Below are positions 2,768 to 10,527 of a stretch of 37,777 bases of DNA, in pieces. Position 1 is the first letter of the stretch; the number at the start of each line of letters is the position of its first letter. The stretch spans positions 1 through 37,777 of IMG/VR virus record IMGVR_UViG_2869924733_000005. One strand, written 5' to 3'. The DNA is from a virus. Its lineage: Duplodnaviria; Heunggongvirae; Uroviricota; Caudoviricetes. Below the pieces are notes generated by a model. It did not search any database. It saw nothing but the letters and a program-made list of their open reading frames with translations, and was not told the DNA's origin. A program made the position numbers and the translations under genes.

Positions 2768-3585
2768 AACTGGAAGATTTACCGAAATACTACTCCCCAA
2801 AATCCCCTGGCCTGACCGATGCATCGGCCTCAACGTCAAAAGATGCGCTGAGTATCACTGATGTGATGGCCGCGCAGGGCATGACACAGAATCGGGCTGA
2901 GATGGGGTTTTCTGCGTTCCTGGGGAAAATGGGCATCAGTATGAATGACAGGGCGCGGGCAACAGAATTACTGGCAGATTATGCACTCAGTCGGTGCGAT
3001 CGTGTGGCGGCGTTGAGAAAACTTCCGGCAGAAATAAAACCGGTAGTGATGCGCATTATGGCTTCGTACGCTTTTGAGGATTATGCCCGCAGCGCAGCGA
3101 GTAAAAAGCAGTGCCCTTGTTGCTATGGGGAAAAATTTATTGAAAGCGTAGTTTTTACAAACAAGGTCCAGTATCCGGATGGTAAGCCGCCGGTATGGGC
3201 AAAGTGTACGAAAGGTGTGTATCCGTCTTACTGGGAAGAATGGAAAAAAGTCAGGGAGGTGGTAAAAGTTGCCTGTCCGGAGTGTGGCGGAAAGGGTGAG
3301 GTTTCCACCGCCTGTAAGGATTGCCGTGGGCGTGGTGTCGCCATTCACCGTGAAGAGTCGGTAAAACGTGGTATGCCTGTTATCAGAGACTGCCAGCGTT
3401 GTGGTGGTCGTGGCTATGAAAGACTACCATCAACGGAGGTATTTAATGCTATATGCGAGGTGACAAACCAGATAACACGCGCGTCATGGGAAAAAACAGT
3501 TAAGAAATTCTATGATGCGCTGGTGACCCGGTTTGATATTGAAGAAGCATGGGCTGAGCGGCAGTTAAAAAAGGTAACTAGGTAA
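2764..3585 (+). CDS. Q: late antiterminator Q (long, zinc-finger-rich type)
   Basis: 273 aa with repeated CxxC/CxxCGG motifs; position immediately upstream of pR'/tR' and lysis genes; overlaps rusA stop (ATGA). Confidence 0.75.
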   Translation: MKLEDLPKYYSPKSPGLTDASASTSKDALSITDVMAAQGMTQNRAEMGFSAFLGKMGISMNDRARATELLADYALSRCDRVAALRKLPAEIKPVVMRIMASYAFEDYARSAASKKQCPCCYGEKFIESVVFTNKVQYPDGKPPVWAKCTKGVYPSYWEEWKKVREVVKVACPECGGKGEVSTACKDCRGRGVAIHREESVKRGMPVIRDCQRCGGRGYERLPSTEVFNAICEVTNQITRASWEKTVKKFYDALVTRFDIEEAWAERQLKKVTR

Positions 3586-3663: not shown

Positions 3664-3692
3664 ACAACCCGCCGCCGAGCGGGTTTTTTATT
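3664..3692 (+). terminator. tR' terminator (target of Q antitermination)
   Basis: acccgccgccgagcgggt hairpin followed by TTTTTTATT. Confidence 0.5.
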
Positions 3693-3728: not shown

Positions 3729-3804
3729 GGCCCTTTAGCTCAGTGGTGAGAGCGAGCGACTCATAATCGCCAGGTCGCTGGTTCAAATCCAGCAAGGGCC
3801 ACCA
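3729..3804 (+). tRNA. tRNA-Ile2 (anticodon CAU, lysidine type, reads AUA)
   Basis: Cloverleaf with acceptor GGCCCTT/AAGGGCC, anticodon loop CTCATAA, T-loop GGTTCAAATCC, 3' CCA; closely resembles E. coli ileX. Confidence 0.85.
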
Positions 3805-3904: not shown

Positions 3905-3981
3905 GCGTTGTTAGCTCAGCCGGACAGAGCAATTGCCTTCTAAGCAATCGGTCACTGGTTCGAATCCAGTACAGCGCGCCA
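3905..3981 (+). tRNA. tRNA-Arg (anticodon UCU, reads AGA)
   Basis: Acceptor GCGTTGT/ACAGCGC, anticodon loop CTTCTAA, T-loop GGTTCGAATCC, 3' GCCA. Confidence 0.85.
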
Positions 3982-4436: not shown

Positions 4437-4937
4437 AAAGTGATTGCTTACTGTTTTTGTGAATGGCATTGCAGCAGCCGGATAATGTCAGTGCTGGCTG
4501 ACGGTGTGCTGGTGGCGGGTGTGGTGGTTGTTGCTTTCCCGTTGCTGAAAAAGAAAACGCCAGACTGTTAGCCGGGTATCAGTTAGCGGGAAAAATTTTT
4601 AAATACTTCACAATTCAGGCGGTTGACTGTTGTCTGGTTTGCGGGGAGTTTGTTAAAAGAAACTGGCATGGTGAATCCCCCTGTGCGGAGGGGCAATCAG
4701 CGAGTAGGTATATGGGATAATCGCGGATTCAGGTGCTGGTACTGAATTCACCGGGAGGCACCCGGCACCATGCACTTCAATAGATTTTCTCCACATTATG
4801 GATATTCTTTCAGAATATCCCACGCAGACTTTGTGTAAATGTTAACAAATGTGCGTTTTATTTGATCTGATTCGCTGTTTGAGCGTCCAAAACAACGGTA
4901 TATATAATCCTTTACTATATGACATATGTGAGGAAAA

Positions 4938-5366
4938 ATGGGTTTTCGTAGCGCATCAATTCTTACGTTGATTATTAGTGGGATTATTATCGGGTGCACT
5001 GATGCTGTATCGACAAATTATCATGACCGTACATCATATTACTCCGATAAAGCAATAGAGACACAGTATGTGAGTTCATCTGAACGTACTTCTGATGTTA
5101 GTGAGGATATCCGTCTGTATGCCCATCAAATCAAGAGCGCCATCGAAAAACAGTTCGGGGATGCGAGTAAGTATTCAGGAAAAGAGTGTACACTGAGAAT
5201 GCATATGGCCCCGAATGGCCTTCTACTGGAGGTTAAAAGAGAAAGTGGAGACCTCGATTTATGTCGTGAAGCGATGAATGCGATAAAGAATGCTGATATA
5301 CCTGCCCCCCCTTCGCCGGAAGTATATAAAGTATTTCAAAATGGGGTGCTGGATTTTAAACCCTGA
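4938..5366 (+). CDS. lipoprotein with TolA C-terminal (domain III)-like fold
   Basis: Lipobox IIGC; C-terminal HQIKSAIEKQFGDASKYSGKECTLRMHMAPNGLLLEVKRESGDLDLCREAMNAIKNADIPAPPSPEVYKVFQNGVLDFKP aligns with remembered E. coli TolA C-terminus. Confidence 0.7.
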   Translation: MGFRSASILTLIISGIIIGCTDAVSTNYHDRTSYYSDKAIETQYVSSSERTSDVSEDIRLYAHQIKSAIEKQFGDASKYSGKECTLRMHMAPNGLLLEVKRESGDLDLCREAMNAIKNADIPAPPSPEVYKVFQNGVLDFKP

Positions 5367-5516: not shown

Positions 5517-5912
5517 GTGGGATTAAAGAAAATCGTTATGTTGACTTTTTGGGTCGGTTTTGTTGCGGGATGCACACCTTTACACCCTTCAGATTGCCAC
5601 AAAACTACTGCTACAGGTAGTTGCAGTTCAGGACGCTGGGATGATCAGGATGAATGGGGGGCGCAAGCGCGGGGAATCAGAGCTGCAATTAATGCCAAAC
5701 TTGATGAGCCGCATAACTGGAAAGGGAAAAAATGCAGGTTGCATATGGAATTCTCTCAGGATGGCACGGCGTTAAAAATATCTACCAGTAACGGTGATAA
5801 AGCCTATTGCGAAGCGATAAAGTCCGCAGCTCATAAAGCCAAATTTCCGGCCTTCAACAATCCGGAAGTCTACAGAGATTTTCAGAAATCTGGCTTTGAC
5901 ATGCGAGGTTAG
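5517..5912 (+). CDS. lipoprotein, divergent TolA domain III-like paralog
   Basis: GTG start with gaggag RBS; lipobox VAGC; ...GKKCRLHMEFSQDGTALKISTSNGDKAYCEAIKSAAHKAKFPAFNNPEVYRDFQKSGFD shares the same motif pattern as the upstream gene. Confidence 0.65.
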   Translation: MGLKKIVMLTFWVGFVAGCTPLHPSDCHKTTATGSCSSGRWDDQDEWGAQARGIRAAINAKLDEPHNWKGKKCRLHMEFSQDGTALKISTSNGDKAYCEAIKSAAHKAKFPAFNNPEVYRDFQKSGFDMRG

Positions 5913-6163
5913 CTCTTCAATTACTATATCTCATTCATAGCAAACTGACAGATTTGATGATGTTCTATATACGAAACCTGTGATGTCAAGTCTGAGCTAA
6001 TACAAATAAACATAATATCAGAGAAATACATTTTATTAGCTGGCTACGGCGAGCTTTTTATATTGCATCGTCTCCAGCATATATATCAATTAAGGCTCTG
6101 ATTGATGTGTCTGAAAGCCTACACATAATAACTATGCCATCCGTTCCGTGCGGAGGTGAGGCT

Positions 6164-6379
6164 ATGAAATCCATGGACAAAATTTCAACAGGCATTGCCT
6201 ACGGCACCTCCGCAGGCAGTGCTGGCTACTGGTTTTTACAACTGCTCGATAAAGTCACGCCCTCACAGTGGGCAGCAATAGGTGTGCTGGGTAGCCTGGT
6301 ATTTGGCCTGCTGACGTACCTGACAAACCTTTATTTCAAGATTAAAGAAGACAAGCGTAAGGCTGCACGGGGAGAGTAA
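6164..6379 (+). CDS. S: class II holin, phage 21 S-type pinholin with dual-start MKSM
   Basis: [31 protein letters not shown]...[14 protein letters not shown] matches S21; ggaggtgag RBS. Confidence 0.85.
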
Positions 6380-6383
6380 TTCA

Positions 6384-6698
6384 ATGACTCAAAAATATGA
6401 ACTGATTGTGAAAGGGATCCGCAATTTTGAGAATAAAGTTACGGTAACTTTAGCGTTACGGGACAAAAAACGCTTTGACGGTGAAATTTTTGGCCTGGAC
6501 ATCTCGCTGGACCGTGTTGAAGGTGCCGCGCTGGAGTTTTATGAGGCAGCAGCCAGAAGGAGCATCAGACAGGTCTTCCTGGATGTTGCTGCCGGGTTAT
6601 GTGAAGGGGACGAGCTGTTGCCACAAACGCGCCCCTGTTCAGAGGCGCGGTATACCATAAAAATTAACAGTTCTGATAACTCGATTACGGGTTGTTAG
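6384..6698 (+). CDS. hypothetical protein inserted between holin and endolysin
   Basis: 104-aa ORF with ggagag RBS 7 nt upstream; no TM segment; unrecognised. Confidence 0.5.
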   Translation: MTQKYELIVKGIRNFENKVTVTLALRDKKRFDGEIFGLDISLDRVEGAALEFYEAAARRSIRQVFLDVAAGLCEGDELLPQTRPCSEARYTIKINSSDNSITGC

Positions 6699-6753
6699 CT
6701 TTTTGCAGTTGGCTTTCCAGTATCTTTCATTGGTAGCATCCTGATAAATATCC

Positions 6754-7287
6754 ATGAGCGCAAAAATCAAATACGGCCTGTCAGCTGCTGTTCTGGCGCT
6801 GATTGCTGCAGGCGCGTCTGCTCCTCAAATACTTGACCAGTTTCTGGATGAAAAAGAGGGTAACCACACTACGGCATACCGCGATGGTTCCGGCATATGG
6901 ACCATTTGCCGCGGTGCAACGATGGTGGACGGTAAGCCAGTCGTACCAGGAATGAAACTGTCGAAGGAAAAATGCGCTCAGGTTAATGCCATTGAGCGTG
7001 ATAAGGCGCTGGCATGGGTGGAGCGCAATATAAAAGTTCCACTGACCGAGCCACAGAAAGCCGGTATCGCATCATTCTGTCCCTATAACATTGGCCCCGG
7101 TAAGTGTTTCCCGTCGACGTTTTATAAGCGGCTGAATGCCGGTGATCGTAAGGGCGCATGCGAGGCGATTCGCTGGTGGATAAAAGATGGTGGGCGCGAT
7201 TGCCGCATACGTTCAAATAACTGCTATGGACAGGTTATTCGTCGTGACCAGGAAAGCGCATTAGCCTGTTGGGGGATAGATCAGTGA
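6754..7287 (+). CDS. R: SAR endolysin (phage lysozyme, R21-like)
   Basis: N-terminal Gly/Ala-rich SAR segment [17 protein letters not shown]; catalytic E..D..T spacing ([16 protein letters not shown]). Confidence 0.85.
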
Positions 7288-7748
7288 GCAGAGTCGCCGC
7301 GATTATTTATGCTCTGGTTATTTGCATCATCGTCTGCCTGTCGTGGGCGGTCAATCATTACCGTGATAACGCCATCGCCTACAAAGAACAGCGTGATAAA
7401 AAAGTCAGTGAGCTGAAGCAGGCGATCGCCACCATCGCTGACATGCAGCAGCGTCAGCGTGATGTTGCTGCGCTCGATGCAAAGTACTCGAGAGAATTAG
7501 CCAATGCGAAAGCTGAAAATGAAACTCTGCGCGCTGATGTTGCCGCTGGTCGTCGTCGGTTGCACATCAAAGCAGTCTGTCAGTCAGTGCGTGAAGCCAC
7601 CACCGCCTCCGGCGTGGATAATGCAACCAGCCCCCGACTGGCAGACACCGCTGAACGGGATTATTTCACCCTCAGAGAGCGGCTGATGACGATGCAGATG
7701 CAACTGGAAGGGGCACAGGAGTATATCCGCACTCAGTGCATTAAGTAG
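7284..7748 (+). CDS. Rz: Rz i-spanin
   Basis: GTG start overlapping R stop; [34 protein letters not shown]... matches lambda Rz. Confidence 0.8.
7504..7686 (+). CDS. Rz1: Rz1 o-spanin lipoprotein embedded in Rz (+1 frame)
   Basis: [42 protein letters not shown]... matches lambda Rz1. Confidence 0.8.
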
Positions 7749-8287: not shown

Positions 8288-8770
8288 ATGTCTGGACCCC
8301 CGAAAACCCCGCCACGCCTGCATTTGATACGAGGCAACCCCTCAAAGCGCCCCGTTAAAGACCTCAAAAAAACCGCTAAAAAGGATGAAAAAGGTCTCCC
8401 TAAAATTCCGCAACATTTAGGGGCACAGGGGAAGTACTGGTTCAGGCGAATGGCGGAAGAGTTGAATGCGGAAGGGATCATTTCTCAGCTCGATGCACGT
8501 GCGCTCGAGTTACTGGTGGAAGCCTACACCGAATACCGGCATCACTGCGAAATACTCGATGTTGAGGGTTATACCTACCGCACGGAAACGCAGAATGGCG
8601 ATGTGCTGATCAAGGCACACCCGGCTGCTGCGATGAAGGCTGATGCCTGGAAGCGGATCCGGGCGATGCTTGCAGAGTTTGGTATGTCACCGGCAAGCCG
8701 GGCGAAAGTAAATACCGCCGGACCGGATGATGTTGATCCGCTGGCAGAGCTTTTAAAAGCGAGAGACTGA
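8288..8770 (+). CDS. terminase small subunit
   Basis: 160 aa, basic N-terminus, position directly before TerL with ATGA overlap. Confidence 0.75.
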   Translation: MSGPPKTPPRLHLIRGNPSKRPVKDLKKTAKKDEKGLPKIPQHLGAQGKYWFRRMAEELNAEGIISQLDARALELLVEAYTEYRHHCEILDVEGYTYRTETQNGDVLIKAHPAAAMKADAWKRIRAMLAEFGMSPASRAKVNTAGPDDVDPLAELLKARD

Positions 8771-10527
8771 TGGCAAAAGTGGCTGACGGGATCCGCTACG
8801 CCGAACGTGTTGTTGCAGGAGAAATTGTCGCTGGCGAATTTGTCCGTCTGGCCTGCCAGCGTTTTCTTGATGATCTGAAGTACGGCGAAGAGCGGGGGAT
8901 TTATTTCAGTGAACCCCGTGCGCAGCACATCCTGAATTTCTACAAATTTGTGCCCCATGTGAAAGGGGCGCTGGCAGGCCAGCCCATTGAGTTGATGGAC
9001 TGGCATGTATTTATCCTTATTAATATTTTTGGTTTTGTCATTCCGCTGGTGAATGAATAGACCGGGGAAGTTGTCATGCGCAGCGATGGCAGCGGACGCC
9101 CGGTGATGGTGCGCCGGTTCCGGACGGCGTACAACGAAGTCGCCCGTAAAAACGCAAAATCAACCCTGTCATCGGGTATCGGTCTGTATATGACGGGGGC
9201 AGATGGTGAAGGCGGGGCTGAGGTGTATTCAGCCGCAACCACGCGTGACCAGGCCAGAATCGTGTTTGAAGACGCCAAAAATATGGTCAGAAAAGCCCGG
9301 TCGACACTCGGGCGGTTGTTTGATTTCAACAAGCTGGCGATTTACCAGGAGCAGAGCGCATCAAAATTTGAACCGCTTTCCTCGGATGCAAACAACCTGG
9401 ACGGTCTGAACATCCACTGCGCCATTATTGATGAGCTGCATGCTCATAAAACCCGTGACGTGTGGGACGTTCTGGAAACGGCAACCGGTGCCCGTCTGCA
9501 GTCCCTTTTATTTGGCATCACCACGGCTGGCTTTAACAAGGAAGGGATTTGTTACGAGCAGCGCGATTACGCCATCAAGGTATTACGAGGCTATAACAGC
9601 GACGTGGAGGGGGCGGTAAAAGACGACTCCTACTTTGCGATTATTTACACGCTCGATGAGGGAGATGATCCGTTTGATGAGACGGTCTGGCAGAAAGCGA
9701 ATCCCGGCCTGGGCATCTGTAAACGCTGGGATGATCTGCGTCGTCTGGCGAAAAAAGCGAAAGAACAGGTCTCTGCGCGGGTGAATTTTTTTACCAAACA
9801 CATGAATGTGTGGGTAACAGCAGAGTCTGCCTGGATGGACATGATTAAGTGGGAGAAGTGCGAATACATTGCCCCACGACATGAGCTGAAAACGTATCCC
9901 ATGTGGGTCGGCGTTGACCTTGCTCATAAGATTGATATCTGCGCGGCGGCAAAACTCTGGCGAACCGATAACGGGCATGTTCATGCCGATTTTAAATTCT
10001 GGCTTCCGGAAGGACGGCTGGAACGATGCTCGCGGCAGCAGGCAGAACTTTACCGGAAGTGGGCGGAGATGGATAAGCTGATTCTGACGGATGGTGATGT
10101 TATCGATCATGCTCAGATAAAAAGTGACTTACTGGAATGGATTGGTGGTGAAAACCTCAGGGAACTGGGATTTGACCCGTGGAGCGCGATGCAGTTCAGC
10201 CTGGCACTGGCTGAAGAAGGGATACCGCTGGTGGAGGTTCCGCAGACGGTCCGCAATCTGTCAGAGGCCATGAAGGAAACGGAATCACTGGTTTATGCCG
10301 GACGTTTCCACCACAGCAATCATCCGGTCATGAACTGGATGATGTCTAACGTTACGGTAAAACCGGACAAAAACGACAATATCTTCCCGAATAAATCCAC
10401 TCCGGAAGCCAAAATCGACGGCCCTGTTGCGCTTTTTACGGCCATGAGCCGCTTTCTGGTAAATGGCGGGGACGTGAATGACTTTCTGTCCACGCTTGAT
10501 CCTGATGAGGACCTGTTAATTCTGTGA
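8770..10527 (+). pseudogene. terminase large subunit interrupted by in-frame TAG at 9058-9060
   Basis: ORFs 8770..9060 and 9076..10527 are in the same frame, separated only by TAG; Walker A-like ARKNAKST just downstream of the stop. Confidence 0.55.

Follow-up and report, generated by a model that had tools for sequence, protein, structure and literature searches.

What is an additional gene doing at the junction between the holin and endolysin genes of a phage 21-type lysis cassette? The question is raised by a stretch of viral DNA (Caudoviricetes; positions 1 to 37,777 of IMG/VR record IMGVR_UViG_2869924733_000005) that we refer to, over its full 37,777 nucleotides (nt), as the window. A 104-amino-acid (aa) open reading frame (ORF) at 6384..6698 on the plus strand separates the gene for an S21-type pinholin (S) from that for a signal-arrest-release (SAR) endolysin (R). 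An earlier note on this DNA had described the ORF as unrecognised and suggested that it encodes a lysis-timing modulator or is cargo exploiting strong late transcription. Here we report that it is a widespread gene of the YdfR (DUF1327) family, that distant relatives of its product are encoded among phage tail genes, and that the DUF1327 gene is regularly followed by a convergent ORF, of which the window has kept only a remnant.

The ORF is a member of the YdfR family

The ORF at 6384..6698 is a real gene, and the earlier note had described its outward features correctly. It is coding, starts with ATG 4 nt (TTCA) after the holin stop (6379), and is preceded by a good ribosome-binding site, the Shine–Dalgarno (SD) sequence GGGAGAG at 6370–6376, 7–8 nt upstream of the start. 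A hydropathy scan for a transmembrane segment, SAR domain or signal peptide gave no indication of membrane or periplasmic localisation (maximum Kyte–Doolittle 19-residue mean, 0.75), and the product is soluble and acidic, with an isoelectric point (pI) of 5.5 in a family range of 4.6–5.6.

The description as unrecognised did not hold. The protein matches Pfam PF07041 (DUF1327) with 128.7 bits against a cut-off of 25 (E = 9.7e-38, profile positions 1–90 of 93) and phrog_2735 over its full length (E = 1.6e-54), and it is 99% identical to a RefSeq 'YdfR family protein'. A megablast search with the 315 bp of the gene found similar DNA in 4247 of 5426 complete Escherichia coli genomes (78%), at no more than 8 copies per genome, and RefSeq names these matches 'YdfR family protein' or 'DUF1327 domain-containing protein'. 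The cassette as a whole has 98%-identical RefSeq counterparts, named class II holin, DUF1327 protein, lysozyme (rrrQ), lysis protein and HNH, and the same gene order occurs in the cultured phages mEp460, Perceval and vB_EcoM-606R7. At larger scale the family is very narrow, since a profile search of 1.84 billion representative proteins returned only 80 clusters. Scans of the ORF with NCBIfam and PADLOC gave no match, and Rfam placed no RNA family within or near it.

The type member is YdfR of E. coli K-12 (b1555, UniProt P76160; PF07041/DUF1327; PHROG 2735/406/2091), encoded in the cryptic prophage Qin. The window protein carries the core signature of the family (Y5, G47, F/Y52-Y53-E54, A57) within a fold of about 72 residues made of three strands and a helix. 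Its gene stands in the same synteny as the type member, with an S21-type holin, a 4-nt gap, ydfR, an RrrQ-type lysozyme and Rz/Rz1; in Qin these are essQ, ydfR, rrrQ and rzpQ/rzoQ, and the arrangement recurs in 17 IMG/VR loci and in RefSeq relatives. The two proteins are 66% identical overall and share 58 of 72 core residues (81%), but bear no relationship to each other over the last 30 residues. In K-12 an ATGA overlap joins ydfR to rrrQ; the window gene is followed instead by 55 nt that contain the scar of a deleted convergent ORF, described below. The ORF is thus, with near certainty, an ordinary YdfR/DUF1327 member that corresponds to ydfR of Qin in both identity and position. The element picked out by the earlier note is therefore already known, as a named y-gene and a Pfam DUF without established function: it is the common, annotated cassette component that the note had said would refute its claim, but not one of known function.

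Sequence comparison indicates that the gene is under purifying selection. All 83 recovered copies of the 104-aa type are intact, and the ratio of non-synonymous to synonymous divergence (dN/dS) of the core is 0.24–0.29 across the divergent window, K-12 and Shiga toxin (Stx)-phage alleles, at dS values of 0.37–1.65. The other refuting outcome named in the same note, a lack of conservation and coding signal in relatives, was not borne out by these data. Within the 104-aa type, the corresponding polymorphism ratio (pN/pS) of the tail is 0.06–0.13, from few sites; we give no weight to the value for the core (0.61), because diversity is very shallow and the loci were chosen for similarity. The GC content of the gene is similar to that of adjacent genes, and no promoter-like site was found between it and S in the window. 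Two further candidates at this position were discarded: a terminator-like hairpin at 6673–6698, which folds no better than shuffled sequence (z-score −1.4), and a reverse ORF at 6639..6770 (43 aa, TTG start), whose frame differs from that of the real 79-aa reverse ORF found in relatives.

A conserved core carries exchangeable tails

Alignments and AlphaFold2 models divide the protein into two parts. Residues 1–72 (6384..6599, plus strand) form a conserved core, predicted as three antiparallel strands (5–14, 18–27 and 34–43) and one long helix (50–71) with a confidence score (pLDDT) of 86 for the core model. Residues 73–104 (6600..6695, plus strand; CEGDELLPQTRPCSEARYTIKINSSDNSITGC) form a lineage-specific hinge and tail that is predicted to be poorly ordered, with pLDDT below 55 in the full-length model. 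The same division runs through the family, in which the N-terminal 72–78 residues are conserved and then give way to alternative tails, producing observed lengths of 103, 104, 114, 116, 161, 176 and 287 aa. The most distant members are stand-alone proteins of 72–76 aa that end exactly where the core ends, and in such 72-aa genes the core remains conserved at identities as low as 26%. This combination of a 72-aa core and exchangeable tails seems not to have been described in the literature searched.

The homology and structure searches proposed in the earlier note thus yielded a family (Pfam, PHROG) but no significant fold neighbour. Foldseek against solved and predicted viral structures gave no match at E ≤ 0.001, and a sequence-profile search of the PDB gave none at E up to 1; because no solved or predicted viral structure matches significantly, we assign no fold family. 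In the longest member (287 aa; P0131, 718–1581 of locus L180), the DUF1327 core is fused in the forward direction to modules that are found separately as PHROG 36381 and PHROG 26186, an indication that genes at the S–R junction have fused and split repeatedly.

Distant relatives lie among tail genes

Twelve distant family members (72–94 aa) were located in their contigs by exact sequence match, and none of them (0/12) occupies a slot between holin and endolysin. Where the context was readable, they lie at junctions between genes of the tail cluster: H–M (loci L185–187), M–L (L007 and L008), L–K (L009–L012) and I–J (L003, L013 and L188), the last of which is the morF site of phi80. One further member (L005) lies just 5′ of holins, and several are on short contigs whose context could not be read. 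In DNA sequence, the tail genes on either side show about 66–68% identity to their counterparts in phi80, mEp213 and lambdoid phages of Aeromonas. With single distant proteins as queries, nothing was retrieved from genome contigs and nothing or one locus from viral contigs. This location outside lysis cassettes, which seems not to have been described in the literature searched, argues that the function of the core domain is not specific to lysis.

Two alternative blocks follow one holin type

To the left of ydfR in the window lies the pinholin gene (6164..6379, plus strand; class II holin, Phage_holin_2_1, PF04971, E = 8.7e-36; phrog_9876/phrog_20 holin), which has an M-K-S-M dual start and an alternative upstream GTG start at 6107. 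To the right, a short leader (6739..6753, plus strand; TCCTGATAAATATCC), kept in all cassette variants in our alignments, precedes the 177-aa RrrQ-type SAR endolysin (6754..7287, plus strand; Phage_lysozyme, PF00959, E = 1.7e-24; rrrQ or lysozyme in RefSeq relatives). The endolysin has a Gly/Ala-rich, SAR-like N terminus, and its gene lacks an obvious SD of its own. The spanin genes come next: Rz, the i-spanin (7269..7748, plus strand; PF03245, E = 2.4e-49), and embedded in it Rz1, the o-spanin (7504–7686; PF06085, E = 6.4e-20).

How usual this arrangement is was surveyed in 80 IMG/VR loci with holins 94–100% identical to that of the window. The earlier note had stated that phage 21-type cassettes normally have no gene between S and R, and this is the form of 56 of the 80 loci, in which the stop codon of S and the start codon of the gene for a 165-aa R21-type SAR endolysin overlap (TAATG; GAATAATGCC at about 2713–2719 in L023 and the 55 similar loci). 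A further 17 carry S and YdfR followed by the 177-aa RrrQ-type endolysin, so that the form with YdfR is common rather than unusual; the remaining 7 are truncated or unresolved. In this holin-based sample YdfR accompanies every RrrQ-type endolysin (17/17) and no R21-type endolysin (0/56), and the two endolysins are 34% identical. A set retrieved with the YdfR profile held one exception to the linkage, with an R only 40% identical. R21-type on the one hand and YdfR with RrrQ-type on the other are therefore two alternative blocks 3′ of one holin type, and the YdfR-containing cassette is a common alternative to the classical one. Searches of the literature on insertions in pinholin/SAR cassettes and on essQ/rrrQ found nothing relevant; a paper on lysis timing and ORF52 of phage BSPM4 was set aside, as that protein is unrelated.

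A convergent partner ORF and its scar in the window

DUF1327 genes are associated with a convergent ORF. In all 12 distant members the DUF1327 gene runs in the sense of the late operon and is followed by a reverse-strand ORF of 58–186 aa, the 3′ end of which lies between −17 and +49 nt from the DUF1327 stop (−53 to +41 nt in the tally that takes in three E. coli tail types). The last four of these loci were looked up as a test of the prediction that such an ORF would follow, and all four had one. The partners of the distant members belong to PHROG 25324, 10490, 18578 and 6806 (function not known), and one is an orphan. Among the E. coli types, the 114-aa YdfR gene overlaps a convergent 90-aa ORF (phrog_2411, pN/pS about 0.3) in phages vB_EcoS-783R2 and Chlobot and in IMG/VR loci, and the 176-aa YdfR gene overlaps one of 86 aa (phrog_2572). 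Pfam and PADLOC gave no significant match to the partner ORFs; the partner in L003 had marginal, sub-threshold PADLOC hits to LmuB (E = 0.001, 15.7 bits) and PDC-M40C (E = 0.01).

The third E. coli type bears on the window. The YdfR profile retrieved 80 loci, almost all of them of the 104-aa type, in which the gap between ydfR and R is 55 nt in 64 and 370 nt in 7, with 6 truncated. The 370-nt gap holds a convergent 79-aa ORF (phrog_21218, E = 1.9e-57) whose TAA overlaps the ydfR TAG. Positions 6699–6738 of the window align with the 3′ end of this reverse ORF, and the remainder, up to the endolysin leader, is missing. By comparison with loci of the L132 type, the remnant on the minus strand at 6695..6738 comprises the last 13 codons (LPMKDTGKPTAKS) and the TAA overlapping the ydfR stop; a short TCCNGAT repeat borders the breakpoint. 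Because the 40 nt retained are coding sequence of the reverse ORF, a deletion in the lineage of the window is more parsimonious than an insertion, and alignment thus indicates that the 55-nt spacer contains a 40-nt deletion scar of the convergent ORF. This scar and the consistent pairing seem not to have been described in the literature searched.

The lost partner also links the window to the distant members. A comparison with hhalign remotely relates its family, phrog_21218, to phrog_6806 (probability 77%, E = 2e-5), the family of the ORF paired with the distant 94-aa members. The tails of these 94-aa proteins also bear a loose likeness to that of the window protein, in an xxEAxxxIxxNxSS pattern, which suggests that core, tail and partner may long have travelled together.

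Two further observations concern these loci. A tail-to-tail reverse ORF was seen after every DUF1327 gene examined outside the scarred and K-12 types (L003–L013 and L183–L190; L015, 828–1100; L132, about 2815–3186; L177, 3479–3739). Between the start of the reverse ORF and the endolysin gene of L132, at about 3060–3130, lies a stretch that resembles a transfer RNA (tRNA) (GGGGTAGCTCAGCCAGCATCCCC…CCAGAGCGCCAGTG).

RNase E as a candidate target

In the literature searched, a single genomics paper mentions the Pfam name, and one functional study (Gopel et al. 2026, RNA Biol, PMC13232886) addresses the K-12 homologue. With RNase G as bait in a two-hybrid screen, ydfR codons 1–72 were recovered three times; full-length K-12 YdfR interacted with Rne(1–597), Strep-YdfR co-eluted Rne(1–598)-FLAG, and DNase-resistant nucleic acid co-purified with K-12 YdfR (PMC13232886). 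Cells overexpressing K-12 ydfR grew without defect, and hardly any ydfR reads were seen in uninduced K-12 (PMC13232886). Residues 1–72, for which that paper reports binding to the catalytic half of RNase E, span exactly the core that we defined independently by comparison.

We favour the following account of the gene, the mechanism in which is weakly supported. The YdfR-family protein would be translated from the Q-dependent late transcript directly after the pinholin, giving a small, soluble, mildly acidic cytoplasmic protein with a conserved 72-residue core and a lineage-specific tail. It would stand outside the lysis machinery proper and be dispensable for the pinholin/SAR-endolysin/spanin pathway, because pinholin, SAR endolysin and spanins work without it in the canonical phage 21 cassette. 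As a late accessory protein it would bind a host cytoplasmic target through its core, and experiments, on the K-12 homologue, support one target only, the N-terminal, catalytic half of RNase E (and RNase G). If this binding is the biological function, it may modulate RNA turnover late in infection. In evolutionary terms the gene would represent the constant member, in late-sense orientation, of a two-gene unit; the convergent and variable partner has been deleted in the window, leaving the 40-nt scar.

Several points weigh against this account. The evidence on RNase E concerns the K-12 homologue, with its 81% identical core, and not the window protein; for that homologue, the authors warn that the co-purifying RNA may have come from a contaminant, the full-length protein gave a two-hybrid signal only with Rne(1–597), and its overexpression altered very few transcripts (PMC13232886). 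The family is acidic and thus ill-suited to a generic RNA binder, a property that fits a protein-binding modulator better. The ydfR Keio mutant is listed among the supplementary hits of an envelope-integrity screen (Paradis-Bleau 2014, also cited in PMC13232886); a polar effect is plausible there, because the kanamycin cassette would sit directly 5′ of the rrrQ lysozyme gene. Finally, apart from the one exception noted above, E. coli ydfR always lies 4 nt after S and beside an RrrQ-type endolysin, which leaves room for a role linked to lysis.

Weighing the explanations

That the ORF is non-functional filler, a chance ORF or a decaying remnant at a recombination junction, would agree with its variable tails and the frequent downstream indels, which mark a mosaic junction, with the lack of an established function and with the narrowness of the family. 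It is effectively refuted by the data on selection and conservation: intact copies throughout (83/83), low dN/dS across alleles at dS up to 1.6, a confident predicted fold, a strong ribosome-binding site, and a core that persists at 26% identity in stand-alone 72-aa genes. Modulation of the lysis cassette is a more substantial alternative. YdfR might tune the timing or output of lysis at the cytoplasmic face of the pinholin or SAR endolysin, or its reading frame might serve as a translated spacer that sets translation of the RrrQ-type endolysin relative to S. The 4-nt S–ydfR junction is invariant in every locus examined, the overlap of the K-12 ydfR stop with the rrrQ start (ATGA) implies translational coupling, the window endolysin has no evident SD, the linkage to RrrQ-type R is strict in the holin-based sample (17/17 against 0/56 for R21-type), and the ydfR mutant scored for envelope leakiness in the screen. 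The protein, however, has neither transmembrane segment nor export signal, the antiholin role is already supplied by the dual start of S21, pinholin/SAR lysis proceeds without YdfR in R21-type cassettes, and 56 of the 80 S21 loci lack the gene; a timing regulator would be expected to co-occur constantly with its holin type and to be restricted to lysis cassettes. The 55–370 nt between ydfR and R in the window and most relatives mean that translational coupling is not general, distant homologues lie among tail genes far from holins, overexpression in K-12 gave no growth or lysis phenotype (PMC13232886), and the link with R type is explicable by simple inheritance as a block. We consider a role in modulating lysis unlikely, and favour, with some confidence, the view that YdfR is not a dedicated lysis factor. 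The earlier note's first proposal, a lysis-timing modulator, has accordingly lost ground, and its second, cargo riding on late transcription, lies closer to the evidence.

A different explanation looks to the convergent ORF. The late DUF1327 protein might neutralise or regulate the product or transcript of an antisense cargo gene expressed in the lysogen, with the tail matched to the cargo, in which case the window copy would be an orphan. In favour are the presence of a convergent ORF in 12 of 12 distant members and three E. coli tail types, its being essentially the sole reverse-strand gene within the tail blocks, the recurrence of the same cargo families with different DUF1327 subtypes and insertion sites, the relationship of the lost partner to phrog_6806, the tail resemblance of the distant 94-aa members, and the coding constraint on a cargo ORF. 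Yet 64 of 71 complete loci of the 104-aa type have lost the cargo, and K-12 lacks it too; ydfR is nevertheless intact and constrained, so its function cannot depend on the cargo. Moreover, most cargo families are not detectably related to one another, none gave more than a marginal PADLOC hit to known toxin–antitoxin or defence models, and adjacency alone could explain co-inheritance. Regulation of a partner therefore strikes us as improbable. A further conjecture, in which the DUF1327 core would be the constant half of a mobile two-gene unit with a variable antisense ORF, inserting at S–R, H–M, M–L, L–K and I–J and acting through the catalytic half of RNase E/G, is one that we hold quite unlikely as a whole; within it, and more speculatively, DUF1327 might shield the long late transcript against decay set off by the overlapping antisense RNA, or keep the cargo silent during lytic growth.

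Our preferred reading, that YdfR is a late cytoplasmic accessory protein acting through its core, has as a whole a probability of roughly 40%, and modulation of RNase E as the actual function is possible but doubtful. What is at stake is the role, not yet established, of a widespread gene that Stx-converting and other lambdoid phages express together with their lysis genes, and the 2026 study makes the RNase E hypothesis directly testable. Our survey shifts the question from the effect of ydfR on lysis to the role of the gene pair in late operons.

The surrounding prophage region

The window represents the late region of a lambdoid prophage, with DUF968, RusA, a Q antiterminator, two tRNAs, two ORFs with TolA C-terminal domains, the lysis cassette, HNH and terminase. 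A terminator-like hairpin at 3666–3685, directly 3′ of the Q antiterminator gene, is a candidate tR′, and the tRNA genes follow at 3729–3804 (tRNA-Met(CAT), annotated as tRNA-Ile in a relative) and 3905–3981 (tRNA-Arg(TCT)). Just 5′ of the holin, two tandem ORFs (4938–5366 and 5517–5912) combine lipoprotein-like N termini (…IIGC and …VAGC) with TolA C-terminal domains (PF06519, E = 2e-23 and 1e-14), and their products may mimic TolA, for example to exclude colicins or filamentous phages. Rfam gave gathering-level matches at 270–440 (sok antitoxin RNA; hok/sok as in Qin), 4637–4827 (STnc100, 5′ of the TolA-like ORFs) and 34955–35153 (IS009 RNA, near the end of the tail fibre). The large terminase gene (8770–10527) is split by an in-frame stop: a 96-aa N-terminal ORF (8770–9060) ends in …PLVNE, and the frame resumes at the next ATG (9076) as a 483-aa ORF with the TerL ATPase and nuclease domains. 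The stop may reflect a defective prophage or a sequencing error.

Comparison with known systems

Characterised phage modulators of RNase E include T4 Srd, T7 gp0.7 and phiKZ Dip. Functionally, Srd is the nearest precedent: it is a small cytoplasmic protein encoded by a phage and, as also reported for K-12 YdfR, it interacts with the N-terminal, catalytic half of RNase E (Qi et al. 2015, as cited in PMC13232886). The analogy is one of function only and reaches the window protein through its homologue. The two differ in outcome: Srd, from a virulent phage, has a clear effect and stimulates decay of host mRNA, whereas overexpression of K-12 YdfR altered few transcripts, as reported in PMC13232886.

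In its position beside a holin, a small gene in a lysis cassette, ydfR recalls antiholins and accessory lysis regulators such as S21-71, T4 RI/RIII, P1 LydB and P2 LysA/LysB. Those regulators are membrane or periplasmic proteins, or act directly on the holin. YdfR, by contrast, has no transmembrane segment or signal peptide; most S21 cassettes lack it, and homologues are encoded elsewhere than in lysis cassettes. Nor does it resemble a toxin–antitoxin or defence component, having no PADLOC or NCBIfam match and being non-toxic when overexpressed in K-12 (PMC13232886).

In genomic position there is also a likeness to the morons of lambdoid phages (lambda bor/lom and the phi80 mor genes), which, like the YdfR family, occupy variable junctions between modules of late operons, the I–J junction being the phi80 morF site itself. 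Morons are recognised by their own promoter and terminator, expression in the lysogen and atypical composition; ydfR instead lies in sense orientation 4 nt from the preceding gene, has no promoter of its own and an unremarkable composition, and yields almost no reads in K-12 lysogens (PMC13232886). It is the convergent partner ORFs that resemble classical reverse-oriented morons.

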